A stretch of DNA of 64,000 nt from Octopus sinensis. Its lineage: Eukaryota. The position numbers and the translations under genes were made by a program. Where the stretch lies: NCBI RefSeq assembly GCF_006345805.1, contig NC_043017.1:30070001-30134000 (forward strand), read 5' to 3'. This document shows positions 3,885 through 35,621 of the stretch, piece after piece (within the stretch, counting starts at the first letter, position 1; each line of letters starts with the position of its first letter). Under the pieces are notes generated by a model, which did no database searches, was not told the DNA's origin, and was given only the letters and a program-made list of their open reading frames with translations.

Positions 3885-4050
3885 TTTTTTGTCTTTATTC
3901 TCCCTCTGCTTATTACTTCGTGTTCCATTCTGTTGAAGAGCGTAGGCTCGAAACGTAAAAGTCTTTCTCTCCTTCCAGAGTGTTAAACTAATATACCTGC
4001 TTGTTGTTTATACATCTGTCTTCATCTTTTGATTTCTGTAGATTTCAACG
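3885..4050 (+). mobile_element. Short PLE-terminal-like module carrying a hammerhead-like motif
   Basis: Pyrimidine-rich ~165 bp unit ending directly in (AT)n; contains the motif at 3926-3961. Confidence 0.55.
3926..3961 (+). ncRNA. Minimal type I hammerhead-like motif (A6U variant)
   Basis: CATT-CTGTTGA-A-GAGC-gtag-GCTC-GAAA-CG-TA-AAAG: stem II GAGC/GCTC, GAAA, palindromic ACGT stem III, stem I 3 of 4 paired. Confidence 0.55.
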
Positions 4051-4084
<34 letters not shown>

Positions 4085-4135
4085 GTGTGTGTGTGTGTGT
4101 GTGTGTGTTTGTATGTATGTATGTATACATGTATG

Positions 4136-4170
<35 letters not shown>

Positions 4171-5429
4171 TTGTATGTATACATGTATGTGTATATATAT
4201 ATAATGTATATGTATATATTCATCTGTATATATTCCTTGAACTGCAGCAATGATTGAACACGAACTTAAAAAGGTGTAATGAAGCAATTCAGCCAGGCCT
4301 GTAAGTTTTTTTTAATATCGCTCTTTTGACGAACCTCTAAGTTATGGGGAGTCGGGATATAAACAAACAAGCACAGTAGTGGACATGTAGTGGACGAGGA
4401 AGAAACACAAGTGAGAAAACACGCACTTGTACATATATGTACACCCACACGCACGCGAACACACACACACACACAAAAGGCACCCACACACACATATATA
4501 TGAAGAAGGCACTCAAGTATGTCTTTAGCATCTGGCAGAAGCCAGTAAAGGATTAAAGGAATAAAATACTAGATTTCATATTGTTTCAAACTCAGGAGAC
4601 ACTGGTCTGCTTGGGGTTATGAGGGCATGACAATTTCCCAAAGTGTAAAGCCACTTGTTTTACTCAGGGTAGGAATGAACTTGGTACCCTGGAACAAATT
4701 GGTTCGAACTGCAGCGCAGTTCTTAACTGCAGAGTAATATGCTTATACATACAGATACATACACCTCCCATCACACACACGCATACATGCACACACAAAA
4801 TATGTCTTATATCTAAGCAAATCATGTTATCTAATTCAGCCAGTCGTCTAACAATGCTTGCCTTCAGCTAGTACTGCAACGATAAAGCATTAACAATTTG
4901 TATCATGACAGCAAATGCTGTACTGCATTAAAGGACAAATAAGAGATAGCAAATGAATTTCAACAGTGCTTTATGCTGTCCATTTAACACTCTTGCAAAC
5001 GTTAATTCATATATCTGTGTATGAGCGCGTGTGTGTGTGAGAGAGTTTATTTCTTTGTGTGTCTATACATGTATGTATTGATTAAAATATCTGGGAAAGT
5101 AAAAAGTCAAAGTCCGGATAATTTATGTTATCTAATTGCAGATTCTATTAAATAACAACAAATGGTGGTCATTTTTGGTGAGCAAAAATACCGAACATCT
5201 TTTTGATCTGGTATGAAAAAGACCATTACGTAAAATCTAATTTGCGACGAGCGAACATAGCTCTAAGCAAAATGGTCAATATATGCATATGTGAGCGTGC
5301 TTGTGCGCGTTCGGTTGTGTGTGTGTATGTATATATATATATATATATATGTATGTACGCATATATCTCTTTATATCTAGCAATTTATCTATACAAATCT
5401 ATCTATATATATATATATATATATATAAA

Positions 5430-5635
5430 GTTAATCCAAACAAGAAAGCACAAAAACACACAACAACGTGAGGACATGGAACAAATATAGTATTATTGGA
5501 CGCTCAGGAAAGAAGGAAAGAAAGAGGGTTTAACGTTTCGAGCGGAGCTCTTCGTCGAAAACATAGGAGAAGGAAAGATCCAGAGAAGGGAAGACAGAGG
5601 AAAAAATCGCCAACGATACACACGAGGTGACATTT
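5430..5635 (-). mobile_element. Short PLE-terminal-like element in (TA)n carrying a hammerhead-like motif
   Basis: Flanked on both sides by TA tracts; second copy at 17157-17255; motif at 5528-5562. Confidence 0.65.
5528..5562 (-). ncRNA. Minimal type I hammerhead-like motif
   Basis: Minus strand GTTT-TCGACGA-A-GAGC-tcc-GCTC-GAAA-CG-TT-AAAC: perfect stem I (GTTT/AAAC) and stem II, palindromic AACGTT stem III; core deviates at positions 3-4. Confidence 0.6.
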
Positions 5636-5811
5636 TATATATATATATCTATATATCTATCTATATCTATATATATCTATCTATATATCTATCGATATAT
5701 CTATATATCTATCTCTATCTATTTATATATATATATCTATATCTCAGCGATAATAATTTTATTTTATCGCAATTTGACTTGTTTATATACATCTATCTAT
5801 CTATATATCTA

Positions 5812-5891
<80 letters not shown>

Positions 5892-5979
5892 ATCTCTATC
5901 TATTTATATATATATATATACATTTGCATAATATATTATGATCAGTCCAGTGATCATAGTTAAACGGAGTTTCTTAGAC

Positions 5980-6835
5980 TCTAGCATATACATGGTTTGT
6001 ATAGAAAACTCAAATATCTCGATGGTTCATCTACGGAAATAACAATTTACTAATCAAAGAAACAGATGCACTCCGTCCCGTTTCGAGATTAGGCAGAAAA
6101 TTTCGATAATATACCAGAGTCTACACAACCCGTTTGGGAAATATCAAACATTATTTCTAAAATGAAAATCATATATAACAGATTACGTGTTCGCAGGATT
6201 ACTAATATTTGCCTTACTGACCCACTGATCAGTAAGTTTATGATAATGCTAACTCACCCAGAGTAGCCATCGGAATGAGAACAACATCAACAGTACAGAG
6301 CAAAATATCAAAAGCCAAACCGATGCTACTGACACTAAACCTGCCCGTGTACTTAATGAAGGCATTACGAAACCTGGGCATAAAGATCTGACTCACACTC
6401 TGCGTGGGAACCCTAGTTTATTGTGTAACTGTAAATGTAAACACTCATGACCATTAGGTAACAAGTGCCTAATAAACAGTATTGTTTATTAATATGTATT
6501 TAACAAGAATCAGTCCATCTACGTTTATATAGTACGTACAAGCAACAACTTTAAATCAATTTTCACATTTATAAGATGACCTTCAGATCCGAATACAACG
6601 CTACTTAGCCCTTTCTTACCTATAGTAAGTGGGAAGACAAAGAAAATTCGTGTGAATACAAAAAATATCAAGTGCGCCATTTTTCAATGTTCAAGAACAG
6701 ATAGTGGTTATAATAATAATTCGTTGTACACTGCAGATATAATGGGAACCAGGCACGATACGGAAAACATCATCAACGAATTTTAAGAAACAATTATGGG
6801 GTACAAGCATGTCTCAACGTTTCCTGTTAACCTAA
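5980..6835 (+). pseudogene. Penelope-like element remnant: linker, Cys motif and C-terminal GIY-YIG endonuclease (Naiad-like)
   Basis: Manual translation from 6424: CNCKCKHS*PLGNKCLINSIVY*YVFNKNQSIYVYIVRTSNNFKS / FHIYKMTFRSEYNAT*PFLTYSKWEDKE / IKCAIFQ..SLYTAD..NIINEF*ETIMGYKHVSTF. This follows the PLE pattern CxCx5Cx5C..IVY..YIG.T..FK.R..H..SF..T.LS..W.LK..I.W.I..C.LC..EK..LN.R.E..CRH..F. Upstream LGRKF and KMKIIYNRL fit the linker. Confidence 0.75.
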
Positions 6836-7055
6836 CACGTTATTGAATGTAGCACAAATATGTATATATATTTGTTTGTATACACACATACACATGCACA
6901 TTTGTATGTATAGGTGCATGCGTGAATGTGAGGTAGGAAAATTGCTTCCAAAAACGTGGTGCTTAATTCATTGGCACACCATGATCTACTTCTAGAATCA
7001 TCTATCATAGCGTTGCTACTGAATAAGGTTGAGGGAAGCTGAACGCCCATGCTTC

Positions 7056-7081
7056 AAATATATATATATATATACACACAC

Positions 7082-7140
<59 letters not shown>

Positions 7141-7181
7141 CATATATACACTCACATATATATATATACATACACACACAG

Positions 7182-7220
<39 letters not shown>

Positions 7221-7443
7221 CACACACAGACACACATACATATATATACATACATATATACACTCACATATATATATATATGGATAGAGGGAAACACAAA
7301 GACGCGCATGGAAATCTGCGCAAATATTAAAATATACGTTTCTGAAATGGAATGAAAAATCCCATTTGGGATGTTTACAGGTATGCAATAACTTCAGAAA
7401 CTCACACACACACACACACACACGCACAAACAAACACACAAGG

Positions 7444-7510
<67 letters not shown>

Positions 7511-7846
7511 TAAATCTGTATATAAGTTTATCTGTATACATGTCACTTCCTCTCCTAATGTACGCATTTTCCACTTTCATTCTCATATTTTGGGTAAATA
7601 TTGACAAAACCGGTGGCCTTATTTCTATTTTCATAGAAGATCCAAGTATTGGATACGAAAATAGAAGTGAAATATTTGAAAGAGAAACACACGTTAGAGA
7701 TAACAAAAGAAATGACCATTTTCATATGATGACAGTTTTGGTCTCATCTCTCGAATTCGTTCCGTTTTATAGCAGTCGTATTAGTTCAGTTATTTATGAA
7801 TATATATGTGTGTGTGTACGCACGCGTACGATTGTGTGTACGTATG

Positions 7847-7888
<42 letters not shown>

Positions 7889-8143
7889 CCTATGAGTTTA
7901 TATATGCATATATATATATATATATACCTATGAGATTATATATGCATATATATATTATATATATATATATATATATACACCTATGAGATTATATATATAT
8001 ATAATATATATATATATATACACCTATGAGATTATATATGCATATATTATATATATATATGAGTTTATATATGCATATATATATATATACCTATGAGATT
8101 ATATATATATATATGTATATATATACCTATGAGATTATATATG

Positions 8144-8190
<47 letters not shown>

Positions 8191-8257
8191 TGAGTTTATA
8201 TATGCATATATATATATATGCATGAGTTTATATATGCATATATATATATTATATATA

Positions 8258-8289
<32 letters not shown>

Positions 8290-8305
8290 CAGTGTGTGTG
8301 TGGGC
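7056..8305. repeat. Compound (TA)n/(CA)n microsatellite blocks with a recurring CCTATGAGATTATA unit
   Basis: Directly visible; source of the YIYI junk ORFs. Confidence 0.95.
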
Positions 8306-10035
8306 ATACATATCTACATCTATTCTCTTACGTATGCTTTAGCATTCGCATATGCAATAATCGTAATAAGTGTATAAGTTTGGGTTTCTACAGCACACAG
8401 ATATATATATATATATATATTAAGAAGAAATACATTTATAAATATATGATTCTCTTAGCAATTTATATATTGATCCAATTCTCGGAAAATCCTTTGAAGT
8501 AATAATTCTCCACGGCTCGGAAATGCTTTTGTTAACATATATTTATTTGATAGAAAGTTATATATACGGTCAGGGCTGATTTAAAGTTTATTTGCACCTA
8601 TGAGAAGATGTCTAACATCACAAATCTGATTTTAGAATCATTTGCTAATAAATTCTTCTGGTAGAAATATGAGTTAGATATCCTCGTTTTGAAAGATGGT
8701 TTGACTAGAGATATATATCTTTACCTTATGGGTCCTTAAACACTACACATTACTACTGTCAGCTTTTTGAGAATTTTGCTCAACTTGATTACTTTTAACA
8801 TCCTTGAGGTCCTCGTGTGCTTTTGTCATATGCAATTTCTGTTTAGTTCTAGCTTATGTGTTTTATACACATAAAATTCCTGTGAGATTATAGCTTTGTA
8901 CTGACCACATATTTTAGCGTCTTACACAATGCACTGCAGTATGCCAGTGCCATTTTGTATGCTCCGCTCAAAGGTTTGCGAGGCCGGTTTTGCTTATAGC
9001 CTTCAAGTGTACATAAATTAAGTACCAATTAATCTCTTGGTGGGAATTCAAATGATTATCTACCGTCTACAAATTTGAAGCTTGTGTCCATGTTAAAATA
9101 AATTTTCCCGTTCGATTTCTACAGATAAATGTGTGACAAGAATCTTTCACCTTTCTCTCTCTCTCTTTCTCAAGTACTTGTACAGTCTGACCATCATTGA
9201 TCTGAGAAGTCCTATACAGGTCATGTGCATTGTCATGGCTTCTCTGACCAATTAATTAATTAATAAAAGCGTTGTAAGTGTCTAGGTCGATAAGGTGTAT
9301 AACACTCAAATGAAGTAATTAAGTAATAGAGAGATTAACTGACGCTGTTAATTTTATTCCCAGTATACATATGTATACACAAACATCCACCACTCAACTT
9401 CACTGAGGCGAAGCATTACTATGTAATCAATAAATCAACCCAATCAATTTCTCTCTAAAACTAAGTTATGCAGCAAAATAATATAAGGTCAAAAAATCAA
9501 TAAAAGTTGGAGGGATCACTTTATTTCGAAAGCTGAATTCCGGAAGCATACAACACAGGGAATAATGACACTTTAATTTTTACAAATTGCTATTTTGGTC
9601 TTAGATCTTTGCTGCAAGGGACAGTCTTATTGAGATTGATTTATAAGATTAAAAGCAGTCAACAAGTTCTATCCCTTCTCTACTTCTAATCTCGACTAGT
9701 TATAAACAACAGCAAATATCCACTGAAACGCGTTCTAATTTAGTGAAAAAGACACATTTATAAACCTTGGTGAAAAATACAGCGAGTTCATAAAATAAGG
9801 TATTGGTATCAAAAAGGAAAACTTGATGCATCGTGTTAATCGTGTTCAACTGGGATGAAACAACAGCTCGGGAAATCAACAAAAGTTTTTAAAAACAGGA
9901 TTTAAAAGATTCTATATAAGAAATATATACTTGACATTTTGTTCTAACTCAGAGGGTCATTGTCACCAAAATAAGCCCACTACTACTACTAATACTACTA
10001 CTACGAACACTAATAAAAATAACAACAACATCATC

Positions 10036-10069
<34 letters not shown>

Positions 10070-10306
10070 GTAGTAGTAATACAAGATGTGGAAATATCGT
10101 CCACTAGATGATGACAATGGCAGTCTTCTTTTGATTTTGATGCTCTATCTTCTGGAGGAGTTACCTCAATCCTTTCTATATTAACCAAAATGAAGTAGAT
10201 TCACAAAATTATTTTTTGAACCTGTTAAGACACACAAGATGTCGAATTATCTTTCCTTAGATGATAATGGCACTCTTCTTTTAATTTTGACTATAATAAT
10301 AATAAT

Positions 10307-10614
10307 ACCTGGAAATTGAGGTATCCAGAATGTGGAATCTAAAAACAGAAACAATTCCTATCAGAGTAGGTGCATTAGGCATGATAAACAAATATTCAGA
10401 CAAATACATAACAAAAACACCAGGACTTACAAACACATATAACATACAGAAAATTGCACTACTAGGCACTGCACACATCCTACGCAGAACACTTTCCATA
10501 CAATAACCATCAGAGCATCACAACAAATCACAGCACATACCTAAGGCACACAGAGCTGCGTCCGGTAGTGAAGTGAAGGTACGCTATAAAAATAAAACTA
10601 CTGAATAATAATAA
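10307..10614 (+). mobile_element. 5'-truncated R4/Dong-type non-LTR retrotransposon (REL endonuclease C-terminus plus 3' UTR)
   Basis: Translates LEIEVSRMWNLKTETIPIRVGALGMINKYSDKYITKTPGLTNTYNIQKIALLGTAHILRRTLSIQ*; (AAT)n on both sides. Confidence 0.85.
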
Positions 10615-10844
10615 TTTTAGGAAAATAAGTGGAATTTTTACCGGTGAGTGGGTTAAATAATAAGGCATAAAAAGAAAATTACTCTCCCCAGACACAACAG
10701 AATATGCTTCAACACACGAACTCTTATAAAGAATCTTGCAAACCAAATCCAAAAACGAAATAATAATAAGATCATCATCATTATTATTATTACGGACCAA
10801 ATAAATCAGGAGAAAATATTTGCGAAGATTTTTAATGCTTGTTT

Positions 10845-11500
10845 TTGGGCTTCCAATCGCCTATATTATTGATTCTGTTATTATCATTTTTAATCGCTAC
10901 ACTAGATAATACCAGAGTCAATAATATCTTCGCAAGTATTTGCTCAGTATTGAAATTAGTTTTACACTGGTAGCTGCCAGGATTCGGCGCAAGATGGATC
11001 AGTAGCAGCGCTGACTTCAACTTAACGGTTAGGGACTTTCCATCGTGCTAGGGAAGGTGAGGCTATATTGCCACTCCCAAAACTGGTCCAATTTGGTCGA
11101 AATACTTGAATGTATGTTGAGAGATAGTCTTAGCCCCTTTGCCCACAGACGGTTGATTTCTCTAGTTATCATGAGATTCTTTCGGCGAGCAAAAAAAAAT
11201 TTTGACTGTTATTTCCAGCCGGTATGGGCATACTTGGTATGTCCTTTGATTAATTTTAATCCTTCAGCTATGTAATGATTTTTGGGTCCTGTAATCGCCT
11301 ATAGTATTGATTCTGCTATTATCATTTTTAATTGTTACACGAGATAATAAAAGGGTCAATAATATATTCACATATATTTTCTCCTGAATTATTTGCTCCG
11401 TTTTGAAATCCTTTTCACAGTGGTGGCTATCATGATTCGGCGCAAAACGAATCAAATGCAGCGTAGACTTCAAAGTGACAGGATGGGGGTTTCTATAATG
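10845..11500 (+). repeat. Diverged ~200 bp direct duplication (10845-11050 vs 11278-11500)
   Basis: Shared aatcgcctata.tattgattctg.tattatcatttt..gataata..gtcaataatat..gattcggcgcaa..gcagcg..gacttcaa. Confidence 0.75.
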
Positions 11501-11601
11501 GTACCGCATGCTGGGATAGGTGAGACTATAATGCCTGTCCAGAAAACGGTCCACCTGAGTTCAAATACTAGACAAGAAATGAAAGCAAAACTGAGAGAAG
11601 A

Positions 11602-11645
<44 letters not shown>

Positions 11646-11646
<1 letters not shown>

Positions 11647-12098
11647 GATAGAGAAATTAAGGCCAACAGACCAGATATAGTTGTCAGAGATCATAAAGAA
11701 AAAAATGTTTTCTAATTGATGTATCAATACCAGCGGATGACAACGTGTCTCTAAAAGAAGTGGAGAAACTCTCAAAATACAAAGACCTGGAAATAGAGGT
11801 AACTAGAATGTGGAACCTAAAAACAGAAACAATTCCTATCATAATAGGTGCATCAGGCATGATAAACAAATATTCAGACAAATACATAACAAAAACACCA
11901 GGACTTACAAGCACATATAACATACAGAAAATTGCACTACTAGGCACTGCACACATCCTACGCAGAACAATTTCCATACAATAACCATCAGAGCATCACA
12001 ACAAATCACAGCACATACCCAAGGCACACAGACCTGCGCTCGGTAGTGAAGTGAAAGCACGATATAAAAAATAATAATAATAATAAAAATAATAATAA
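11646..12098 (+). mobile_element. 5'-truncated R4/Dong-type non-LTR retrotransposon
   Basis: DREIKANRPDIVVRDHKE / frameshift in A-run / CFLIDVSIPADDNVSLKEVEKLSKYKDL...LLGTAHILRR: PD..D..K restriction-like endonuclease; inserted in (TAA)n; same 3' UTR as the 10307 copy. Confidence 0.9.
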
Positions 12099-13214
12099 GA
12101 AGAAGAAGAGTTTAATAGAAACATCGTGCGATTCTATTAGGACATAATAAACCCCCACCCACCCAAGATGAAGCAAAATATGTTTCAACATATGAATTCG
12201 CATCAATTGTCGTGGAAACCAAATGCAGAAGTGAAAATATAAGCGACAAAATATCGTTTAAAAGTGACATTAGGCAGAATATAAATGGCAATATTCTTGA
12301 ATATGTTTGTTGGCGCCGACAAGCATCAGATGCAAATAACATATTTATGATATATATATTTGGTAAATCAAGGTGTTCCATCATGTCCAGTTATTTTATT
12401 CCTCAACAAAATCTTATCTTCTACATGTGTATGTACCCCCCCCATATATATATATAATAAATGCTCTCATACCTACACAGCCTTGGTTTTTATGATATTA
12501 CGCAAAAAATTCTTATATATATAAATATATATACACAGACATGCATGGATTTATAAATGAAAGCATACATGTGCATATACGATCCCACACTCGTTTGCAT
12601 CTCTCCAGTTTATTATTGAGATAAGAAGCCTCATTAAAGATGAGACAACATAACGATATCACATGTTAGTATCACACACCACGTAATGTTGTATTGGGAT
12701 CAACTCTAAGAGGGTAGAATTACGATGAAAGAGCTTTCAGACGTATCTCCTGTGTCCTTAATTGGGATAAAGCGGATTCATTACTACACTAAGCACCGTG
12801 CAATATTCCTCTATATTATCAGAATTTTGAAGTTAATTCGATTATCTATATCATGCATGTTGTCGCAAATTGCATGGTATCTCTTTCATTGAGTCGCCCA
12901 CCGTAATAAGCCCTTGTAATATACTTGTGTATATTAAGGAAAAATCATTGCTATTTTGCAAGGGTGATTTTAGCTGTAACGACAATTTTTTCGGCAAACA
13001 CTTAACTGTTTACTAGTTAATGGAATCTCTTCTGAATATCATAACATAAAATGTGAGTTATAAAGTGTGCGACAGCGATAGAGTGGTATAAATAGAATGT
13101 CGCTTTAAAAGCAATATGGTAACATGTTACATCAATAGCGTATCATGAAAGATATGGATATAATGCGGTAACAAAATTCGGATATAAAGTAGGTAACATA
13201 GATAGCGATAGTGG

Positions 13215-16191: not shown

Positions 16192-16279
16192 AATAAATAA
16201 GGGACATAGAAAAAACAAGGAGAGAAACAAAGAGAGAAAAAAATATGTGTAGTGGCTAACGATCTATCATGGCGACTAC

Positions 16280-16449: not shown

Positions 16450-16480
<31 letters not shown>

Positions 16481-17119: not shown

Positions 17120-17156
<37 letters not shown>

Positions 17157-17160
<4 letters not shown>

Positions 17161-17251
17161 ATCCAAACAAGAAAACAAAAAGCACAGCAACGCGAGGACG
17201 TGGAATAAATAAAGTATTATTGGACGCTCAGGAAAGAAGGGAAGAAGGAGG

Positions 17252-17255
<4 letters not shown>
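17157..17255 (-). mobile_element. Truncated copy of the 5430-5635 element
   Basis: gttaatccaaacaagaaa..tattattggacgctcaggaaagaagg..gagggttt, between two (TA)n tracts. Confidence 0.8.
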
Positions 17256-18659: not shown

Positions 18660-19705
18660 CTCTTTTACTCTTTTACTTGTTTCACTCATTTGACTGTGGT
18701 CATGCTGGAGCACCGCCTTTAATCGAGCAACTCGACCCCGGGACTTATTCTTTTGTAAGCCTAGTACTTATTCTATCGGTCTCTTTTGGCCGAAACGCTA
18801 AGTGACAGGGACATGAACACACCAGCATCGGTTGTCAAGCGATGTTGGATGGGACAAACACAGACACACAAACACACACGCGCACACACACATATACACG
18901 ACGGGCTTCTTTCAGTTTCCGTCTACCAAATCCACTCGCAAGGCTTTGGTTGGCCCGGGGCTATAGCAGAAGACACTTGACCAAGGTGCCCCGCAGTGGG
19001 ACTGAACCCAGAACCATGTGGCTGGTAAACAAGCTACTTACAACACAGCCAATATATACTCTTTTACTCTTACTTGTTTCACTCATTTGACTGCGGCTAT
19101 GCTGGAGCACCACCTTTAATCGAGCAACCCGACCCCCGGATTTATTTTTTGTAAGCCCAGTACTTAATCTATCGGTCTCTTTTGCCGAACCGCTAAGTCA
19201 CGGGGACATAAACACACAAGCATCTGTTGTCAAGCGATGTTGGGTGGGACAAACACAGACACACAAACACACACGCGCACACACACATATACACGACGGG
19301 CTTCTTTCAGTTTCCGTCTACCAAATCCACTCACAAGGCTTTGGTTGGCCCGAGGCTATAGTTGAAGACACTTGCCAAAAGTGCCACGCAGTGCGACTGA
19401 ACCGGGAACCATGTTGTTGGTAAACAAGCTACTTACCACACACTCCACTCCTGCGCCTATATATATATATATATATATATACATATATATACATATATAT
19501 AACATATATACATATATATATACATATATATACATATATATATACATATATACATATATATACACATATATATACATATATATATACATATATATACATA
19601 TATATATACATATATATATACAATATATATATACATATATATATACATATATATACATATATATAATATATATACACATATATACATATATATACACATA
19701 TATAC

Positions 19706-19839: not shown

Positions 19840-19890
<51 letters not shown>

Positions 19891-20216
19891 GACGTGCTTC
19901 TTTCAGTTTCCGTCTACCAAACCCACTCAGAAGGCTTTGGTCGGCCCGAGGCGATAGTTGAAATCATTTGCGGAAGGTGCCACGCAGTTGTACTGAACCC
20001 GGAACCATGTGGTTGGTAAACAAGCTACTTACCACAAAGCCATACATATACATATATACGACGGGCTTCTTTCAGTTTCCGTCTACCAAATCCACTCACA
20101 AGGTTTTGGTCGGCCCAAGGCTATAGTAGAAGACACTTGCCCAAGGTGCCACGCAGTGGGACTGAACCCAGAACCATGTGGTTGTTAAACAAGATACTTA
20201 CCACACAGCCACTCCT
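18660..20216 (-). mobile_element. Cluster of four same-orientation family-A SINE copies (18660-19051, 19057-19460, 19888-20042, 20057-20216)
   Basis: Two near-full copies and two 5' halves, with a ~430 bp TA/TACA tract between copies 2 and 3. Confidence 0.9.
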
Positions 20217-20686
20217 ATATATATATTTTGTATTCATGTATGTCGTGCCCTGCTATTTGCCTGTATGTGTCTTTCCAATTATCGGCCAGTGTTTGTCTCA
20301 CCTCATTTGCAAATCCAATGTTCCAATTAAATGGATTCGACGGAATTACTTGACTTTGAAAATGTCGAACAAAAGATGACTTGTGTTAGTTCTTGTGCAT
20401 CACACAAATAACTTTGTATTCCTAAATAAAAACAAGACCAGTGAAGCAAGTATCGGTGTTTGCTTGCCTTGGAACGAGAACAGAATAACCAATGACAAGT
20501 GTGTTTAAGCACAAGTACCTGCACAGAGAAGAAAGCTCAAACGCTGCACACAATTTACCAACAAATTAATTGTTTAATATAGCTGTACTACGTTTACATA
20601 TACTCATATTTTTCGATATATTTGTGAATGTATGCATATGTGTGTCTGTATATGTGTGTGTGCACTGTTATATGGACCTACGTAAG

Positions 20687-23452: not shown

Positions 23453-24107
23453 AAGGCGACGAGCTGGCAGAAACGTTAGCATGCCGGGCGAAATGCGTAG
23501 CCGTATTTCGTCTGTGGTTACGTTCTGAGTTCAAATTCCACCGAGGTCGACTTTGCCTTTCATCCTTTCGGGGTCGATAAATAAAGTACTAGTTTCGCAC
23601 TGGGGTCGATGTAATCGTCTTAATTCCTTTGTCTGTCATTGTTTGTCCCCTTTATGTTTAGCCCCTTGTGGGCAATAAAGAAATAAGAAACGTTAGCATG
23701 CCGGGCGAAATGCGTAGCCGTAATTCGTCTGTCGCTACGTTCTGAGTTCAAATTCCGCCGAGGTCGACTTTGCCTTTCATCCTATCGGGGTCGATAAATA
23801 AAGTACCAGTTTCACACTGGGTTCGATGCAATCGACTTAATTCCTTTGTCTGTCATTGTTTGTCCCCTCTATGTTTAGCCCCTTGTGGGCAATAAAGAAG
23901 TAAGAAACGTTAGCATGCCGGGCGAAAAGCGTAGCCGTATTTCGTCTGTCGTTACGTTCTGAGTTCAAATTCCGCCGAGGTCGGCTTTGCCTTTCATCCT
24001 ATCGGGGTCGATAAATAAAGTAACAGTTTCACTGGGGTCGATGTAATCGACTTAATTCCTTTGTTTGTCCCCTCTATGTTTAGCCCCTTGGAGGCAGTAA
24101 AGAAATA
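23453..24107 (+). mobile_element. Head-to-tail trimer of family-B SINE (217 bp period)
   Basis: AGAAACGTTAGC at 23469, 23686 and 23903; B box GAGTTCAAATTCC in each unit; only unit 1 has the complete 5' head. Confidence 0.95.
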
Positions 24108-25364: not shown

Positions 25365-25397
<33 letters not shown>

Positions 25398-25972
25398 AGT
25401 CAGGGTAGAAAATGCTAAAATAATTTAATAAAGAACATTTCAGTACCGTTTTCAGCCATGTGAGACCTTTTCGACTGTAACGATTGAAAATGTCTCAAAT
25501 GACTGAAACCGGTACAGAAATATTCTTTATAAAATTATTTTAGCATTTTCTACCTTGACTTGTTTTTTCACATATATCAACTCGTGTGTTCCTTTTCATC
25601 CTTATATATATGTATATATATATATATATATATCGTTAATTACATATATTAACATGTATGCTTCGTGTACTTTCTGGTGGCTGCAATGACTTAGCTGAGT
25701 ATATAACTCTCATGTCGCCAGAGTTAAACACCGTAGAGACGTGGACAGGTGAGATAGCTCACCTTCAATCACATTTGAGAGTGTGTCTGTACCCCACCAT
25801 CCCTTGACAACCGATGTTGGTGTGTTTACTTTCCCGAAACTTAACAGTTTTGCCTAAGAAACCGATAGAACAAGAACTAGGCTTACAAAGAATAAGTCCA
25901 GGGATCGGTTTCTTCGACTAATGGTAGTGCTCCAGCTTGGCCGTAGTCAAATGACTGAAGTAAGTAAACGAA
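25172..25972 (+). mobile_element. Family-A SINE split at its internal microsatellite (5' part 25172-25330, 3' part ~25783-25972)
   Basis: Both halves recognisable, separated by a CA tract, an inverted repeat and other sequence. Confidence 0.65.
25396..25562. mobile_element. Inverted pair of PLE-terminal-like modules with hammerhead-like motifs
   Basis: Arms 25396-25472 and 25486-25562; motifs at 25441-25477 (-) and 25484-25517 (+), the latter with GAAACCGGTA. Confidence 0.7.
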
Positions 25973-26014
25973 TAACAGACTGTGTTTGCTGTGAGTATAA
26001 TATTTGACGGTAGT

Positions 26015-26392
26015 TTAATGCATTCGAGCTTTGGTGTCGGAAAAGACCTTTTACGGATTCCCTGGACAGCGAGGCTTACCAATGGAGAAGTTCTTAAGCA
26101 GATAAGGCCGAAAATGTCGCTAGAAGCTAGGATCACCAAACATAGATTGGCCTATTTCGGTCATATTATGCAGAGAAAATCCCTGGAAAAGGACATCATG
26201 CTCGGAATGGTCAGTGGCAAGAGATGAAGAGGCCGACTAAGAACCCGCTGGCTTGACCCCATCAAGAGTGATACCGGAATGGAAATGGCCAATCTGAACG
26301 AAGCGGCCTAAGATAGAACTGACTGGAGGACACTGATCCAACGAGTGACCGAGAGTCGACTCCGACTGAGCGGATAGAGATAGAGTGAGAGT
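26015..26392 (+). mobile_element. 5'-truncated RTE-clade (BovB-like) LINE 3' end
   Basis: AFELWC / LLRIPWTARLTNGEVLKQIRPKMSLEARITKHRLAYFGHIMQRKSLEKDIMLGMVSGKR*RGRLRTRWLD..DRTDWRTLIQRVTESRLRLSG*, followed by a short GA-rich tail. Confidence 0.9.
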
Positions 26393-26777
26393 TTAAAGCC
26401 AATAGTCATAAAACAGAAGTTCCTTATATATTCTGCTCATGATTCTATTGTGCATTTGTTTCGTTTTGGGTTAGGTAATGAAGGTACATATATGCCTATT
26501 AGAGCGCAATGTAACGATCGATGTTAGGCAATGGAACTTTGTAATATGTATATTCAGTTTGTGTATGAGTCTCCTCTTTTGAAGGGGATATAAAGTGGTT
26601 GCTTTGAAGCTTCAGGTCAATGAATAGCCTGCAGGAAGACATACAGCATCTCGTATGCGTATACTGTTGCAGATACTACTTAGGTTTCTTTTTCATTGAT
26701 TCAAGGTTTTTCGCCCTAACACAACTGTTTAGATTTTAGTGTTGAGGCATATAGCATTACTTTTGAATCCACTGCTG

Positions 26778-26909
26778 TTATTATTATTATTATTATCATT
26801 ATTATTATTATTATCATTATTAGTATCATTATCATTATAATCCTTATTATTATTAGCATCATTATCATTATAATCCTTATTATTATTAGTATCATTATCA
26901 TTATAATCC

Positions 26910-26944
<35 letters not shown>

Positions 26945-26997
26945 ATCATCATTATTATTATCATTATCATTATTATCATCATCATTATTATTATAAT
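26778..26997. repeat. (ATT/ATC)n microsatellite with short higher-order units
   Basis: Directly visible. Confidence 0.95.
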
Positions 26998-28344
26998 TTT
27001 GGCTATTGGATGAATGAAATCTCTCAACAAGGCTTATTCTCTCTTAGTTAACAAAACTTTCGTATTTGTACGAGTACTATTTATTTTAACGTATTTCCTC
27101 TTTCTTCGAATTACCAGTGTTATCTTGTTTGAAATCTAGTGTTTAAAATACGCACTCAACTGGTTCCGTTCCTATCCATAGATTGCGTATTGGGATAATT
27201 CTATTTTCGTTTAAGTTGCTATTACTATAAAGATAAGCAAGACAATTTATATTGTGTCAGGCATAAGGATTGAACTCAGTTTACTTATTAATGGGATAGT
27301 TTACGCTTTCTTCTACTTTAGAGTATACTGAAAATGAGAATTTTAACGTACGTTGATTAAAGTTGCTTTTATATTTATCTCTAGGTGAAAGGATCATGTT
27401 TAGATATAATAAAACGTTTGTGTCTGCAATACGTCTTTACGTTTCTTGCCCAAGGTGCGATAAAGCAAGGTGTTTCATTTCATGGTTTTGAAAACTTCGT
27501 TGGAAAAGTAATTAATTTTGGCATCAATAAAAAAAGAATGTTTTAACAGAATATCACGTTTTAATGTTTGCCTTTTGGTATATTTCTGTTATACCTAATA
27601 AGAATTGTGAAACTCCTTCCATTGTCTGATAAAAACTTACAATTATTGCACTTTAATAAATTATACTCGGACATTTGCCTATTAATTACGACTTGAATAT
27701 TTGTTCTCTTAATTGTTTGCGTTAATTTCTGAAAACCATTTATTACATTAACAGTTTTCTCTTGGTAATTAAAAATGTAATTTGTAGTATTATTAATCTC
27801 GTGTGTATTAATTGTACATCCATAACCGTTAGGATCTTTAATGATCGCAGAGTTACAATTACGTTTTTAATTCCCAGTTCTATCGCTTTGATTTTGATAT
27901 CGACTTCTAACACCGTAAGATCTCTTATCCTTATTCTTTAGAGTCATAGATCTTATCTTCCTAGACTGGTTTCATTTTTATTGAGTGGAATGTTCTTTAT
28001 GATTTCGTTGCATCCACATCTTTATAGTGCCTCTATGATATCCAGAGCAATCATTGAATGTTTAATCTGTTACAGACAATTTAGATATTCTCGGCCAAAT
28101 ATTTCTAAAGAGACTTTCTGTAAAAGGCATAGACGATTAAAGTACGAAGAACATTGCAGATGATTTGAGACGCTTTACGAGGATGAGTTATAAATGTAGA
28201 TTATTGTAATTTAATTATATCAATATTATAGATCTAATACGCAGACATACTAACGTTTGTTATTCTACTTTGAAAGAGAGCGCTATAATAAGTCTTGGAA
28301 CATTACCTGCAGAACATGGCTTTCCACACGCTCCTTCTTAATCT

Positions 28345-28680
28345 GAGACCTCCCTTCGGTCATGACTGACCGTGGGATTGCACCTATAAAGTTACCCTCC
28401 CAGGCACAAGTCCGAGCTAGGTTGTTTATGGAAGACCAGCAGTCGCCCATGTATAACGGCCTCTTCTCTCCACGCCACCAGTGTTATCCAAGGGAATGGA
28501 AAAGGCAGCGATACAGCTTGGAACCTGTGACGTGTTAACTCATTTCTACAGCTGAGTGAACTGGAGCAACGTGAAATGAAGTGTCTTGCTCAAGAACACA
28601 ACACGAAGCCCGGTCCGGGATTTGAACTCACAACCTCACGATCGTAAGCTCGATGCTCTAACCAGAGCCATGAGCCTTCA
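28345..28680 (-). mobile_element. tRNA-derived SINE family D
   Basis: Minus-strand head tggctctggttagagcatcgagc..GAGTTCAAATCCC, body gtgttcttgagcaagacact..cactcagctgtagaaatgagt; second copy at 59067-59360. Confidence 0.85.
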
Positions 28681-28709
28681 TTATTATTATTCCTTCATTT
28701 TGTCATTAT

Positions 28710-29092
28710 TCTCTTTACTCTTTTACTTGTTTCTGTCATTTAACTGCAGCCATGCTGGAGCATCGACTTTAGTCGAGGAAATCGACCACAGAAACTAATT
28801 CTTTGTAAAGCTAATACTTATTCTATCGGGCTATTTTGCCGAACCGCTATATGACGGGGACATGAACACACCAGCATCAGTTGTGAAGCAATGCTAGGTG
28901 GAGAAACACCGACACACATACATACATACATACATACATATCGCCGAGCTTCTTTCAGTTTCTGTCTACCAAGTCCACTCACAATGCTTTGGTCGCCCCA
29001 AGGCTATAGTACAAGACACTTGCCCAAGATGCCACGCAGTGGAAATGAACCCAGAACCACCATGTGATTGGTAAGCAAGCTAGTTACCACAT
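28710..29092 (-). mobile_element. Family-A SINE
   Basis: Colinear with 2708-3091. Confidence 0.85.
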
Positions 29093-29099
29093 TGCCATT

Positions 29100-29530
29100 C
29101 CTTCATAATATCTTTATAATATCTTCGGATAGACAAATATTGAGGTTCTCTTTCAGCGTGGGGAACCACAAAAAGCCAAAAGACGAAATACTTGGATTTT
29201 AAGGAAGGTGAGTGACAGTTTTGATGGCCATCTCTGTCAAGTAGTCTCTTAACAAAATGCTCTTCACAGAGCACTAAGGAATCAAAGTTTGCACAAAGGG
29301 TGCACATGCACAGATCATTAGCAATAATTCTGTATACAGTTGCCACACGAACACCAAACGGTATGCTTATTGTCTTTAGTGACAACTTGCGAATTTGCTT
29401 AACCATCGTTCACCTTCTGACTTCCCCCCCTCACTCCCACTCACATTATAGTCCATTTCCTCACTAGTACGTTTGAACCTCTTGTACCAGCGAAGACGTT
29501 ACTCATAAGTTTCTGCCCAGCTTGACTCAA
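29100..29530 (-). pseudogene. Internally deleted mariner transposase remnant
   Basis: LRWYKRFKR; QIRKLSLKTISIPFGVRVATVYRIIANDLCMCTLCANFDSLVLCEEH (HTH plus WVPR-equivalent region); HSPSL..FWLF / WFPTLKENL (YSPDLAP.DF.LFP.LK equivalent). Confidence 0.7.
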
Positions 29531-29914
29531 GACTACGGTGTAGCGAGCTTCGAAACGTCCTCACTGCATTTAGAAACTAATCAGATATGTCAAATACTCT
29601 TAGTGGCGTGTGCTCAAAATAAATGCATTTATTGCTGTCTTCTTCCACTCGTAATAAAACAAAGGTTTGAGGTAGGTTTATTAGGCGTATAGTAATTAAA
29701 TACTGAAACTACAATGACCTGGAACAGTTATAAATGCCTCTCTTAAAAGAAGCTCAAAACTTCTGAAATGTGGCGAGGTCTCTCAATCGTTAATGCGCCG
29801 GCAAAATATGCTTAGCGACATTTCGCCCGTTTTCATTTTCTGACTTGAAATTCCTCCGAGGTTGGCTTTGACTTTTATACTTTCGGGGTCGATAAAATAA
29901 ATATCAGTTTTATC

Positions 29915-30240
29915 GGGCATATGGCATAGTGGTTAAGAGCGAGGACTACTAACCCTAAGATTCCGAGTTCGATTCCATGCAGTGACCTGAACACTAACAA
30001 TAATAATAATAACAACAACAACGTCGACGACGACAACTACAACAACAATAATAACAATAATAACGATAAGAAGAACAACAACAACAACAACATTGAAAGA
30101 TACCTTAGGAATGAGAAGCCAGGTTCGAAATTTCCACAAGACACCTGAAGAAGGCTGGAGGGAATATCAGCCGAAACGTTGAGTTAACAACAAACAACAT
30201 GAAGATAAATATCCGCCGAATGTAAATAATGTAAATAATG
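29915..30240 (+). mobile_element. tRNA-headed SINE-like element with internal (AAT/AAC)n and a hammerhead-containing tail
   Basis: A box TGGCATAGTGG (29922), B box GAGTTCGATTCC (29965), microsatellite spacer, hammerhead at 30140-30185, tail of short AATGTAAAT repeats. Confidence 0.8.
30140..30185 (+). ncRNA. Minimal type I hammerhead ribozyme motif, canonical core
   Basis: GACAC-CTGAAGA-A-GGCTG-gagggaatat-CAGCC-GAAA-CG-TT-GAGTT: intact CUGANGA, GAAA and UH; 5-bp stem II; palindromic AACGTT stem III; stem I 4 of 5 paired. Confidence 0.75.
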
Positions 30241-32054
30241 AAAATGAATATCAGTTGTGATCGATATAATCGGTTTATTAATTCCCATAGAGCTGCTGAG
30301 CTTGTGAGAAAGTGCGAAACAGATATTAAGAAACACGAAAGTGGTGAGCAGAATCGTCAGCATGCCTGCCAAAATACGTAGTGACGTTTTGTTCGTCATG
30401 AGGTTCTGATTTCAAATTCCGTCGATGTCGACGTCGCGTTTTCTCTTTTCGAAGTCGGCAAAAAAAGTACCATTTGATGAACCCCAGGGTCGATATAATC
30501 GCTTGAACACCGGGGTTGATATGATCAATTTATGGTTCCCTCCCTTGAAAGTGGTAGCTTTGTGCTAATATTTGAAATCAGCATCGTTAGAAAAGTGTAA
30601 TTAGATGTAACTGTAAATAAATTAGATGTATCTGTAAATGAATTCTGTTTTTTGAAGTACATGAATATTCCCGGAGATTTAAGTACTGGCTACATGGCAT
30701 GGTACTTCAGTCGCATTCAAAAAGATATGATTGAAAACGGATCCTGATAACAACAATCTAACCGATACAAGTCCGAATCTGGAAGCCGTCTGCTGGCAAG
30801 TTTGTCCATCTTTTAAGGGTAAATACCCAATCTCTCTCTCTGTATAAGTAAGTATATATATATATATATATATATATGAATGAATGTAATGTATATTGTC
30901 ATTTAAACGTGGGGGTTCTACAAGAACAGACGTTACTACTGTTTTAAACCCAGTATATATATTGCAAGCGGGGAGAGAACTCCGTACTCTCCAAGTTCCA
31001 AGATCAGCATATCACGTAATTTCAATCTTTTTTGATTATCATCAGTGGCGTATACTCGTCTGCTATATATATGCATTTTTTGTTTTAATAATATATAATT
31101 ATCAATATTTATATATTATTAAAAAACATATGTATATATCGCTCGTATTAAATATATGATTACTTTAATAGTATAATTCTTGAATATATTTACATATATG
31201 TGTATGTATGTATGTATGTATGTATATGTGGGTCTTTGTTTGTGTATTTGTTTATGCAATTCTATATATCTATAAATTCTCTGATAGACAGATCATACCA
31301 CACGACAAAACTAATTTCTTCGGTTACTGAACAAATTCAAGTCCCTGATAAGCTGGTGGTTATGCAATATATATTAACAACGAACGTTCGTACTTGCTCA
31401 GACGTTTCTAGTACGGATCTCAATTATAAACTTCCATGTTCACGTATGTTATTTCCTATATGAAAATAAGAATCCAAAGATAATTATTTCTTGTCATCAA
31501 TATATTTTGCTATATTTTTCTACATCACTGTATTATGTTTTTGTTCATCTGAAGTGTTTTTTTCTGCTACATATTCTTTCCCAAAACCTATATTCTTGTA
31601 TACTTCTGAAAAATATGTATCCAGCTAGTCTTACACATAATAATACGCACGCATGTCAGGAGAGAATTCGATTTTTTCTTCTCAAATTCGCTGACAATGC
31701 ATCCATTGATGACGGCAATCTACAATTATCCACGCCGGTAATACATACATACATACATGCATGCATATATACATACATATGTACAGAAATATATACATAC
31801 GTACATGCATGCATATATACATACATATGTACAGAAATATATACATACGTACATATACATATATATATATATATATATCTATATATGTGCGTAAGAATAT
31901 TTGCGGGTGTATTCGTATGTACACACATATATATATTCACATATATATGGATATACTTATATATATATATATGGATATATTTATATATATCCATGTATAT
32001 GTGTATATCTATGGGAATGTATAGATATAAATAGAGAGAGAGATAAACATATAC

Positions 32055-32095
<41 letters not shown>

Positions 32096-32845
32096 TATAT
32101 ACATATATATATATCTGTATATATATATATATCTGTATATATATTGGTATATGTATAATATTGATTATATGTGTGTCACTGTATTTGTGTGGGGAGGGAG
32201 TGAGAGAGGTTTAGACATTGAGAGTATGGGAGTGAAAAATTGAGAGAGAGAGAGTGAGAGAGAGAGTGAGAGAATAAAGGATTAAATGAAAGAAAGAATG
32301 AAATAAATATTGAGAAATACTGCTGCAAGTACACTATAAAATATATAGAATGATAGCGAACTGCACATATGTAATTTAACCAATAATCAATTGTCACAGT
32401 TAAAGAAAAAGAGTTTAAATGATAAACTGCGAGACAGAAATCATTAAGTGTTGCAGAAACGAACGGCACAGCAACGTTTTGGTGGAAGCCAGAGATATAT
32501 AACTATCAACATATTGACCTATTCATAAGTAGAACAAAGAATCGATAACGAAGCAGACGACAGCACTCCAGATTGTGAATCACATTGAATTGTGTAATGA
32601 ACTTTTGGAATATGGGAGTTCTTCATCTATTCATTCTTAGCTTACGTCGTTCTATTTTTTCTACAATTCTTATTGTTACTTTCAGAAATCACAGACAGGA
32701 ATGTGGTTCTTCATAAGTCAATCTAGTCGTAACTGTCTATCTTTTTCTTGAAATCTAGGAGTATTCAGAAAGTCTTCTTGCTTACTATCTTATATACACC
32801 ACTCCTACACATACACAACCATACAATTATATATTTACATATATA

Positions 32846-33820
32846 CAGGGTGTCCCGAAATTAAGGCAACGAAGTTTCGGGCTTTAATAACTATCAATAA
32901 ACGTGATAAGATATGAAAATAGATTGTGCATCATTATAAGACCTTAGTGTGTCTTTTTGTTTCAGACTAAATAAATTCAGATTTATAAATTAGATAATGG
33001 CTATAGACCGGAATACAATCATAACCCACCGCAAAGGAGACGAAGGTAATACAACTTTGGCAAAATAGCTTGAAATTAAGAGAACAACATTCTGTAAAAT
33101 TGAATAGAAATTCAAGAAACTAGTTTCCGCTTATCAACAAAAATTAGCCTAAAGAGCAGTGTGTGAACCCCTCAGCTTATCAAAACTACGAAAGAAAATT
33201 ATGATGAAATTATCGTTCAGTTAGATAACAGGCAGCCACAGCTAAAATAAGCAGACTATTTATATATCGAGTGCTCAGAAAGGATCTCAGGACCCAGCCT
33301 TACAAGATGATCCACTGTCATCAGCTCGCGCAAGTTTATAAATCTATGAGACTGGAGACAACACGTCTTATCCTGCACCAGATTTGCTGAAGTCACGCTT
33401 CGCAAACTGGTGTTCACTAATGAAAAGGAATTTGACATCGAACAACCAGTAAACCAGAATGACTGAGTTTAGAGTGTATCTGACTTCGTTCGGGGACAGA
33501 CCCATAAATCGATGTCGACGTCAAAGCTCAGTCAGTTATGGTTTGATCGGCTGTGACAGCCACTAGAATGTCTCACCTCGTCTTTGAGTACTCTGATTTT
33601 AAAACAGCTAACGATACATTAGCGACAATCTGGAAGCTGCAGCGTTTCCACGAAGAAATGCGCACCATCAAGGCACATGTGGGGAATTTCCAGCATGACT
33701 CGGCAGCATCTCACAGCAGGAAAAGACAGAGCACTGGATTCAGAAAAAAAAATTCCATTGTTCATACGAAAGTATATATAGGTCTCAACAAGCTCCGATA
33801 TCAACCCCTTCGACTGCAGC
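32846..33820 (+). mobile_element. DD37D/maT-like DNA transposon fossil (5' TIR plus decayed transposase)
   Basis: TA|CAGGGTGTCCC start; ATG at 32997; motifs LVFTNEKEFDIEQPVNQND*V, QSVMV*SAVTATRMSHLVF, FQHDSAASHS, SSDINPFDCS. Confidence 0.8.
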
Positions 33821-34665
33821 TACAGTCAAACACATTTGTCCAAGGAAATAAATCTTTATTTTCGCAAAAGGACTTCCTACTTATTCAAATGCTCAGAATT
33901 ATTCTTACATTATCTCGAAACGTATAGATTATGATGAAGTAACTGTTACCTTTTAGAATGACAATGTAGAGAAGCAGTGCGAGGCTTGATATTGCCAGTT
34001 TGGACCAAACATAGGGAAAATAATTGTGCCGGGCATGGCTTGTTTAAAATCTGAAGTGTTAAAAGCAGAATGCTGTTTCAAGGATAAACAGAAAACCTCT
34101 AACTTGTTACAGCCTTAAAACCAATACGATATCCTCGAGGTCATGGCGTGTGCAGGAGAAGTGTTTACGAGCCTTTGAACTATCCGCACAGTCAATTGAG
34201 TACTGGGTAGAATCTGAAATGAATTGTCTCACGCATGAACACTAACATTTAATGTACAATGTGTTGTACAAACATGTATCCAAACATCAGAAAATAATTT
34301 AATTGCTACATGCTTTATCAAATTGGTGTTACTCAGTACCGCATCTTCTCAGAGAGGGAGAATTCAATATGTTTGTAGTGTAAATATTTACGTTTGGAAA
34401 TATAATTATTACAACCTGAAACCGATGATTTCCACCTGGTACCGCTATTCTTATAAAAACACGTAAGTACACGCATACACACACATATATATATATACAT
34501 GTGTATATATATATATACATGTGTATATATATATATATATATATAGACATGTATGTAAATATATATATATATACATGTATGTATGTATATATAAATATAT
34601 GCATATATATATGAGTATATATCCATTTATATATGCGTGTATTTATGTATGTATGTATATATATA

Positions 34666-34698
<33 letters not shown>

Positions 34699-35399
34699 CG
34701 AGCATGCACGCCCACACAACACGCACATGCATATATCTGTGTCACTCTTAGTAACTCTTAATGAGTTAGCGAGTACTACTGCTTACCAGAAATGGAGCTA
34801 TATGCATGGGAAACTATGATGGTGGCAATTGCTTTTCTAGAAAATTCGCAACCTTATGGAGGCGTGGGAAATATGTAAATATGAGTAGTCATTTAAGTCC
34901 TTAAGTACATTTGATAAGCATAAGAACCTTCTGAAAAAAGCGGTTTTATTTCTTGTATTAGCGCATCATTATTAGCGGCAAAATATTCATTGAAATATCT
35001 CAACAAATGGTTTAGCCTAAGAAATTAAAAATTAACATAGCATATAAAAGCATTATGTCCGCCTTTTAATCTCCGACTCACGTTTTTGCATTTCACCTTC
35101 CTAAAATGAAAAAAAAATTAGTGCTAGTTTTGAGTTTTAATGACCTAAAGTCTTCTTTTCATGTTTTTGAAAATGTATTGTTACAATTAGAGAAAATCTG
35201 TCGGTTTTATATTAATTGTAACTTCAATTATCTCGATCGCTACATTGCCCATAGTCAAACTTTCCTGTTTGGCATCCCCTTGCTCTCCTTTGATGTATGG
35301 TTTTGAATATCTGCTTCTCCGGTTTGTGCACTAATTATGTATGTCTGTTATAACACCTTTTTCCGAAATATTCTTCGCCAGTATATATATATATATATC

Positions 35400-35621
35400 G
35401 TAGAGGGCACATAAATGTGAAATAAGGGGGAAAAATAGTACTCAAATGCCAGAGGTAGAGTAATATGCTTATTTGAAAGCAGAAACATAACAAAAGCTGT
35501 TACTCCGAGTTTCACGTTCCCGTTCGTCGGATAGTTTTATTACAAAACTGTCAGACAAACTTGTTACAGCCTTAAATCTACTCTGAGTAACAGCTTTTAT
35601 ATTTCTGCTGCTTTTAAATAA
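35400..35621. mobile_element. TA-flanked inverted pair of PLE-terminal-like modules
   Basis: Arms ~35469-35538 and 35544-35621 around the loop ATTAC; hammerhead-like motif in the left arm, disrupted copy in the right arm. Confidence 0.7.
35497..35534 (-). ncRNA. Type I hammerhead-like motif (U4C variant)
   Basis: Minus strand CTAT-CCGACGA-ACG-ggaa-CGT-GAAA-CTC-g-GAG-TA-ACAG; the partner arm shows stem I was CTGT/ACAG. Confidence 0.65.

Follow-up and report, generated by a model that had tools for sequence, protein, structure and literature searches.

What part do hammerhead ribozymes play in Penelope-like elements (PLEs)? Craig et al. 2021, describing the endonuclease-containing (EN+) PLE clades, treat the question as open (PMC8557442). 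The hammerheads of metazoan PLEs are minimal type I motifs that lie in the terminal repeats, with a short stem I, a palindromic or absent stem III and, in some cases, an extra base between positions 9 and 10.1 or a U3-A8 covariant core, and they occur mostly as single copies or as opposite-strand pairs (PMC4209133). EN+ PLEs combine a C-terminal GIY-YIG endonuclease with clade-type linkers, TA targeting where a linker is present, inverted truncated copies and tails (PMC8557442). All of these features recur in the DNA studied here, a 64,000-nucleotide stretch of the Octopus sinensis genome (NCBI RefSeq assembly GCF_006345805.1, contig NC_043017.1, positions 30,070,001 to 30,134,000 of the forward strand; hereafter the window), in which a preliminary description had noted hammerhead-like motifs at five sites: 3926 (+), 5528 (-), 25441/25484, 30140 (+) and 35497 (-), here called F1 to F5. 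The extra base is present in F1, F2 and F4. We conclude, with a probability of about 0.82, that the five sites represent five PLE families from three clades, each site being the decayed 3' end of an element truncated on its 5' side, that each family carries in its 3' untranslated region (UTR) a minimal type I hammerhead likely to cleave slowly as a dimer, and that the odd cores come from master copies.

Five repeat families and their hammerhead cores

All five motifs are present in the window at these positions, and a similarity search of the surrounding 2.72-Gb genome identified every site as a copy of a large genome-wide repeat family. Exact-pattern counts, made with the variable core positions left open and to be read as lower bounds, gave 2,087 matches for F1, 6,342 for F2, 3,441 for F4 and 740 for F5 (F3 lay outside the count), with none for the reversed-pattern controls; the dense hammerhead population that had been suggested is borne out by these numbers. 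In each family the column majorities over 28-30 loci, some palindromic loci being counted twice, give a complete minimal type I hammerhead, and both these majority motifs and the intact copies have the palindromic stem III that had been described.

In a genome so rich in repeats, could a permissive descriptor nevertheless have matched these motifs by chance? The window is rich in microsatellites (110 rows in a tandem-repeat scan), and the test set beforehand, an excess of relaxed matches over dinucleotide shuffles, gave a divided answer. With at least three stem I pairs required, the single window match stands against a mean of 0.375 (maximum 2) in 40 local dinucleotide shuffles, which is not significant; without stem I, the 20 window matches stand against a mean of 8.15 (maximum 16) in as many shuffles. 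The window by itself is weak evidence, and the claim rests on the family data. A descriptor that allows for the variants, composed after these had been seen, was run over 200 kb of unselected genome and found five intact matches, three of which belong to a family other than F1 to F5; 25 shuffles gave 0-1 each, and a search with the canonical core gave none. The variant cores thus do escape a CUGANGA search, as had been foreseen, and standard descriptors undercount these hammerheads. Together with the family counts, the pair-preserving changes described below and the position of the motifs downstream of PLE open reading frames (ORFs), this result already refutes chance at the family level and leaves it a negligible probability.

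The cores depart from the canonical CUGANGA in F1 (A6U), in F5 and most of F2 (U4C) and in F3 (U3-A8), as shown for F1, F2, F4 and F5 by hand counts over the first 100 listed matches of each. In F1, position 6 is U in 93 copies and A in 2; C3 (98), U4 (94) and G8 (97) are held, and position 7 is free (G 57, U 20, C 13, A 10). Position 4 of F2 is C in 72 copies, U in 27 and A in 1, and 27 of 100 copies have the canonical core. These U4 copies form a subfamily, with an upstream marker in 11 of 11 U4 copies vs 2 of 19 C4 copies, and CpG decay was therefore rejected as their origin. F5 has C4 in 86 copies, U4 in 12 and A4 in 2, and here the 12 U4 copies fit CpG decay. The claim that all cores are variant fails for F4, which is canonical (A6 in 98; position 7 U 73, A 24, C 3). 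Likewise, the core UUGAAAA is real for F3 and is the U3-A8 covariant already published for PLE hammerheads (PMC4209133); of the reported YCGACGA, the form CCGACGA is a family variant and the Y reflects a private C3U mutation in the F2 window copy, C3 being present in 100 of 100 listed copies. Variant cores are a family property, inherited from master copies, and not private decay.

Pair-preserving changes affect the 10.1-11.1 pair of F3, which in the motifs listed is G-U 23 times, G-C 7 times and A-U 3 times, and the outer stem I pair, which is C-G in F1 and G-C in F2; in F5, variation falls at the unpaired centre of stem III. A free position 7 with the other core bases held is the expectation for selection on the hammerhead fold. 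No report of A6U or U4C fixed in whole PLE families appears in the text of PMC4209133 consulted here, and the part of its supplement searched has no octopus, A6U or U4C strings. Similarly, a search of literature listings found no A6U PLE hammerhead described. The minimal hammerheads of PLEs are a known system; the new aspects are the family-fixed core variants, with A6U in F1, and the tRNA-like insert in the F4 parent discussed below. The 2017 survey by Lunse et al., reportedly the largest of these variants, may list A6U.

The families had been described as unrelated. This holds for nine of the ten family pairs, which show no relatedness by local alignment, and fails for F1 and F2, whose alignment scores above all 200 shuffles (z=8.1) and whose parent proteins are 59% identical over 90 amino acids (aa); restricted to the part 3' of the hammerhead, the F1-F2 alignment is not significant.

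Parent elements of the five families

What elements do the five families belong to? Parents were reached by walking upstream with longer copies, and ORFs were scored on the same strand. ORFs were reached for all five families, in agreement with the PLE origin that had been proposed. An ORF lies upstream in 19 of 30 long-copy loci of F3, where the ORF match is 490-1,030 nt from the core, in 10 of 30 long-copy loci of F1, and in one of four F2 loci fetched from 40 candidates. In F5 the first two walks gave 0 of 30 and 0 of 30, and the third gave 16 of 30, with the hammerhead in the same locus in 8. The 30 best endonuclease matches of F4 include a tRNA-like segment of the 3' UTR, the "head" discussed below, in 26 cases, the hammerhead in 23, and both in order in 20. 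Pfam recognizes RVT_1 in the F3 (below cut-off) and F4 parents and GIY-YIG in the F3 parent; the endonuclease of F1, F4 and F5 is recognized by motif only. The F4 ORF has 256 longer relatives, and nearly all of those listed carry RVT_1. Reverse transcriptase (RT) followed by a GIY-YIG endonuclease thus stands upstream of the repeat, which is the order of an EN+ PLE. Furthermore, the F4 hammerhead end directly precedes the 5' part of the ORF in 15 of 30 loci, a partial tandem or pseudo-long terminal repeat (pLTR) for which F4 was the family examined, so that the same sequence does serve as a terminal repeat of PLE ORFs, as had been anticipated.

By the linker motifs of PMC8557442, the F1, F2 and F3 parents are Neptune-like (CX2-5CxxC), the F4 parent, without linker, is Poseidon-like, and the F5 parent (CxCX5C, CxxC, CxH) is Hydra-like.

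Several points weigh against reading the five sites as PLE ends with functional hammerheads. The linkage fractions come from loci selected by upstream queries and are not genome-wide rates; among unselected copies, 10 of 90 F4 copies reach parent sequence and 3 of 30 F2 copies extend more than 100 nt. The F2 parent link is a single locus without the endonuclease part, Pfam finds no domain in five of six frames of one set and four of seven of another, and the clade names follow linker motifs, not a tree with reference PLEs. The pair-preserving variation consists of descriptive counts without a formal covariation statistic, and the pattern counts hold G5 and A9 fixed by design. Finally, three raw RNA-seq runs, filed under another organism code and of unspecified library strandedness, show no end pile-up at the cut site.

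The five sites had originally been seen as separate, non-autonomous elements, and self-standing mini-elements or retrozymes could amplify through their own short or circular RNAs. Sharp 5' boundaries (22 of 30 F2 copies within 14 nt; 34 of 90 F4 copies) would suit such elements, as would three long F2 copies (L444, L611, L612), possibly a true non-autonomous derivative, that begin alike in non-coding sequence about 1.1-1.2 kb 5' of the hammerhead. However, the sequence runs on across the boundaries into parent UTRs and ORFs, and a comparison of 32-34 short with 35-36 parent F4 copies yielded no diagnostic column (best p=0.006 uncorrected, 222 columns). Head-to-tail hammerhead arrays are absent from the window, and neither these nor permuted ends were noticed in the loci read, without a genome-wide scan. 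We consider mini-elements improbable and regard the sites as truncated 3' ends of coding PLE families.

Other PLEs were met in the course of these searches. Of 30 loci fetched in a Pfam search for GIY-YIG, two are host-gene-like; none of the five ends is the own 3' UTR of the 28 PLE-type loci, which show another U3-A8 family. Among the GIY-YIG matches listed, many have an identical score, which points to a family with a UUGAUAA core that was active recently. Neptune-like PLEs with near-intact frames of 750-880 aa lie at L575:1753-4092, L574:2314-4962 and L577 (-). In an F3 locus (L230:1840-1856), an AT-rich tract ends in AG just before the core, like the 3' splice site at stem I described for Drosophila Penelope (PMC4209133).

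Window copies, insertion and cleavage

The features of the window copies are as follows.

3868..4050 (5' edge approximate), +: F1, Neptune-like PLE, truncated 3' end that runs up to a TA tract
3926..3961, +: F1 minimal hammerhead; CUGUUGA (A6U) at 3930-3936, extra A, 4-bp stem II, GAAA at 3950, ACGU stem III; predicted cut after 3957 (+)
5427..5636, -: F2, PLE akin to the F1 parent, truncated 3' end lying between TA tracts
5528..5562, -: F2 hammerhead; family core CCGACGA (U4C subfamily) with the private C3U; predicted cut after 5532
25395..25563, both strands: F3, inverted pair of 5'-truncated Neptune-like PLE 3' ends; 78-nt arms, 90% complementary
25481..25517, +: F3 hammerhead of the + arm; UUGAAAA (U3-A8) at 25484, ACCGGU stem III
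25441..25477, -: F3 hammerhead of the - arm, decayed; core at 25474
25571..25604, +: F3 one-sided tail of about 30 nt, typical of PLEs (PMC8557442)
29915..29991, +: F4 tRNA-like head, within the parent PLE 3' UTR; A-box-like motif at 29922, B-box-like motif at 29967
29996..30092, +: F4 internal (AAT/AAC)n tract of varying length
30090..30245, +: F4 body, the 3' end of a Poseidon-like PLE
30140..30185, +: F4 hammerhead; canonical CUGAAGA at 30145; predicted cut after 30180
35468..35622, both strands: F5, inverted pair of Hydra-like PLE 3' ends, second arm partly degenerate
35497..35534, -: F5 hammerhead; CCGACGA (U4C) at 35530, 3-bp stem II, GGAA loop, long palindromic stem III; predicted cut after 35501 (-)
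35400..35468, -: F5 one-sided tail (about 65 nt)

The motifs thus lie where they had been placed, but the full architecture ascribed to them is intact in none of the window copies; the family-majority motifs are intact. In addition to the C3U of F2, stem I has a private A-A mismatch in F1, a private mismatch in F4 and a mismatch in F5. In the F3 + arm, the 5' strand of stem I is missing at the inversion joint and the 10.1/11.1 pair is U-U; in the - arm, stem III is broken and a U4C is private to this copy. No PLE ORF remnant was found within the window. Rfam, among the 150 of 280 rows listed, gave no hammerhead family for the window, and only microsatellite-driven, microRNA-type matches.

How were these copies inserted? 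Their anatomy is PLE-like, with 5' ends that vary in position. Inverted, 5'-truncated copies with one-sided tails are found in F3, F4 and F5 (inverted pieces upstream in 47 of 90 F4 and 13 of 30 F5 copies) and are not evident in F1 and F2. The microsatellite association that had been noted is well founded for F1, F2 and F5, whose 3' ends adjoin TA/CA tracts in 48 of 52, 23 of 28 and 18 of 34 copies, respectively, 14 more F5 copies carrying a tail; it is weak for F4 (21 of 77 vs a background of 17.6%), where the AAT/AAC tract is internal to the element. The F3 value (48 of 49) is inflated since the tail starts with TA. TA/CA abutment by family matches the proposed link between linker and TA targeting. 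Action as dimers had been noted for PLE hammerheads. The inverted arms of F3 and F5 fold as long hairpins (-89.8 and -54.2 kcal/mol, respectively) and are not tandem dimers; such palindromes would sequester the motif and are integration products.

We propose that the endonuclease would nick the target, at TA tracts in the linker-bearing Neptune and Hydra types, and that RT would copy from the RNA 3' end, usually stopping early, after which a second, inverted copy would be joined through microhomology. Cleavage would be slow and dimer-dependent, in which case weakened cores could be tolerated. A weak core may even be favoured, since rebuilding the terminal repeat would require a template left uncut across the ribozyme. 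The tRNA-derived segment in the 3' UTR of the F4 parent marks a hot spot of 5' ends.

Minimal PLE hammerheads are inactive as monomers and weak as dimers (PMC4209133). With CpG changes allowed, 7,976 F4 matches span the predicted cut site vs 7,219 just downstream; copies span the site no less than the sequence downstream, and RT templates are therefore mostly uncut or rejoined RNA. For the same reason, we rejected the candidate that copies start at the cleavage site. Folding energies of monomers and homodimers were uninformative, as they did not set the active fold apart.

A different view is that the A6U and U4C motifs no longer cleave, their fold being kept as a protein- or RT-binding element or drifting in master copies. 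In published assays A6C cleaves at <0.1 per min and U4C is much reduced in vitro (PMC3088659), Naiad PLEs thrive without hammerheads (PMC8557442), genomic copies span the cut site, and none of the F1 loci examined shows a young, intact ORF. Against this, once A6U had arisen, the subfamilies of F1 came to differ at positions 7 and 17, which are free, with the other core bases held; U4C is found in two unrelated families and a third motif (L078), and the U4C subfamily of F2 is the larger one; and U4C supports viroid infectivity (PMC3088659). Loss of cleavage thus seems to us unlikely, and slow cleavage remains our preferred account.

Further hammerheads and repeats were seen beside the five sites. 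A second F2 fragment, flanked by TA tracts and truncated just 3' of the hammerhead, lies at 17156-17255 (-) of the window, and a sixth hammerhead-like motif, absent from the preliminary description, at 31010-31051 (-). The latter has a canonical CUGAUGA core at 31045, a 4-bp stem II, a long palindromic stem III and a 2-bp stem I, and resembles an intact motif in locus L431. In the fetched loci, which were enriched by the queries and give no density estimate, a scan found 304 distinct matches (CCGANGA 88, CUGANGA 84, UUGANAA 60, CUGUNGA 35, others 37). At least seven additional hammerhead families are present there (L526:-, L536, L156, L575:4662, L078, L237, L516, L517, L431), among them more U3-A8 types, a third kind of U4C motif in which a bulged A precedes GAAA (L078), and wobble cores with U3-G8 (L237 and L517). 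The window also holds tandem dimers and trimers of 170-395-nt short interspersed repeats, at 18660-19442, 19873-20226, 23469-24069, 46405-46950, 50239-50596 and 61014-61382.

The tRNA-like head of F4 and comparison with known systems

The F4 head starts about 30 nt after the parent stop codon. Relaxed ARAGORN called 10 of 30 heads vs 0-2 of 30 shuffled ones in 20 rounds, and of 15 distinct tRNAs of the genome itself, Arg-TCT matches best (z=7.0); default ARAGORN and the Rfam tRNA model made no call on the head. Both A- and B-box-like motifs, called by the box consensus, are kept. Of 30 loci fetched with the head as query, 27 have head and body linked, as do 20 of 30 fetched with the body; that linkage and the presence of the head in the parent led us to reject the head as a separate short interspersed element (SINE) beside the body. 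Among 90 unselected copies, taken in chromosome order from the first 100 listed, 34 start at -20..+12 of the head, 11 inside it and 10 upstream, and 35 have no head; by an arithmetic estimate, starts at the head boundary are roughly 13x as frequent per base as truncation on either side. Copies starting at the head are SINE-like in form, and the head may be a promoter that spawns them. Short F4 copies do not form a lineage of master copies of their own, as a SINE would. In L197, L094, L109, L309, L370 and L416, a further repeat with an (AAT)n end sits in or before the AAT tract, so that some of the headless copies may have been split by an insertion and not truncated.

We lean slightly towards an explanation without an RNA polymerase III (Pol III) transcript, in which a 12-nt palindrome just upstream of the head causes the pile-up of 5' ends through fold-back of the complementary DNA or head-to-head joining. 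The fold-back context has 1,130 matches (many counted on both strands) vs 460 for the parent context, and the F2 boundary is equally sharp (22 of 30) without a tRNA head. Among indexed records that contain the sequence, none is registered as RNA. In the RNA-seq runs, F4 reads number 5,984-8,701 per run in about equal orientations, their depth rises 3'-ward and tracks copy number, and the fold-back joint appears as loose ends; none of the three shows an F4 start pile-up or a discrete transcript. This pattern fits passive read-through, although such libraries would likely miss short uncapped RNAs. On the other side, about 10 head-start copies lack the fold-back, by reading, vs about 2 expected from the truncation rate within the head, and both boxes are kept. 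The lack of T4 terminators in F4 was rejected as Pol III support since two thirds of shuffles also lack them.

A search of literature listings found no tRNA segment in a PLE UTR and no PLE-dependent tRNA SINE. Tentatively, the terminal repeat of an autonomous Poseidon-type PLE may have acquired a Pol III promoter of tRNA origin, giving a self-transcribed head-microsatellite-hammerhead RNA of about 300 nt that the parent RT would copy. This would be a nascent SINE within its own partner, and the first SINE to have a Penelope element in that role; a neighbouring PLE lineage would carry an active A6U hammerhead, with PLEs selecting throttled ribozymes. If the F4 head is a working Pol III promoter, SINEs could originate by internal capture, and SINE partners would extend to PLEs.

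How does this locus compare with known systems? Among the closest are tRNA-derived SINEs, which share their 3' end with a partner long interspersed element (LINE), and the Schistosoma SM-alpha hammerhead repeat. F4 resembles these in having a tRNA-like head, a middle of simple repeats and a 3' end taken from an autonomous retroelement, a length of about 300 nt and thousands of copies. It differs in that its partner is a PLE, its head lies inside the autonomous parent, there is no separate short lineage, and insertions are PLE-style inverted pairs.

The U3-A8, U4C (viroid) and A6C (phage) core variants collected by Perreault et al. 2011 are described there as rare (PMC3088659), whereas A6U is here present in thousands of copies across subfamilies. 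The genome thus offers a natural allelic series of cores (canonical, U3-A8, U4C and A6U), in which U4C has a canonical sister subfamily that shares its context. With this series, assays can ask whether PLEs need fast, slow or no cleavage. In comparison to the hammerheads of other metazoan PLEs (PMC4209133), F3 and F5 are without the extra base and mostly without G10.1-C11.1, and stem II is just 3-4 bp in four octopus families. Hydra clade hammerheads are called canonical in PMC8557442, whereas that of F5 is U4C; the tRNA-like segment that the F4 parent has in its 3' UTR goes unmentioned in the available part of that source, and the octopus rows displayed in its supplement are Naiad entries only. 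Finally, the non-LTR (long terminal repeat) retrozymes (PMC7229834; bioRxiv 10.64898/2026.07.22.740005) likewise consist of short type I hammerhead repeats of PLE origin, but they form tandem arrays that give circular RNAs, whereas the octopus ends are dispersed, single or inverted, and continuous with ORFs.

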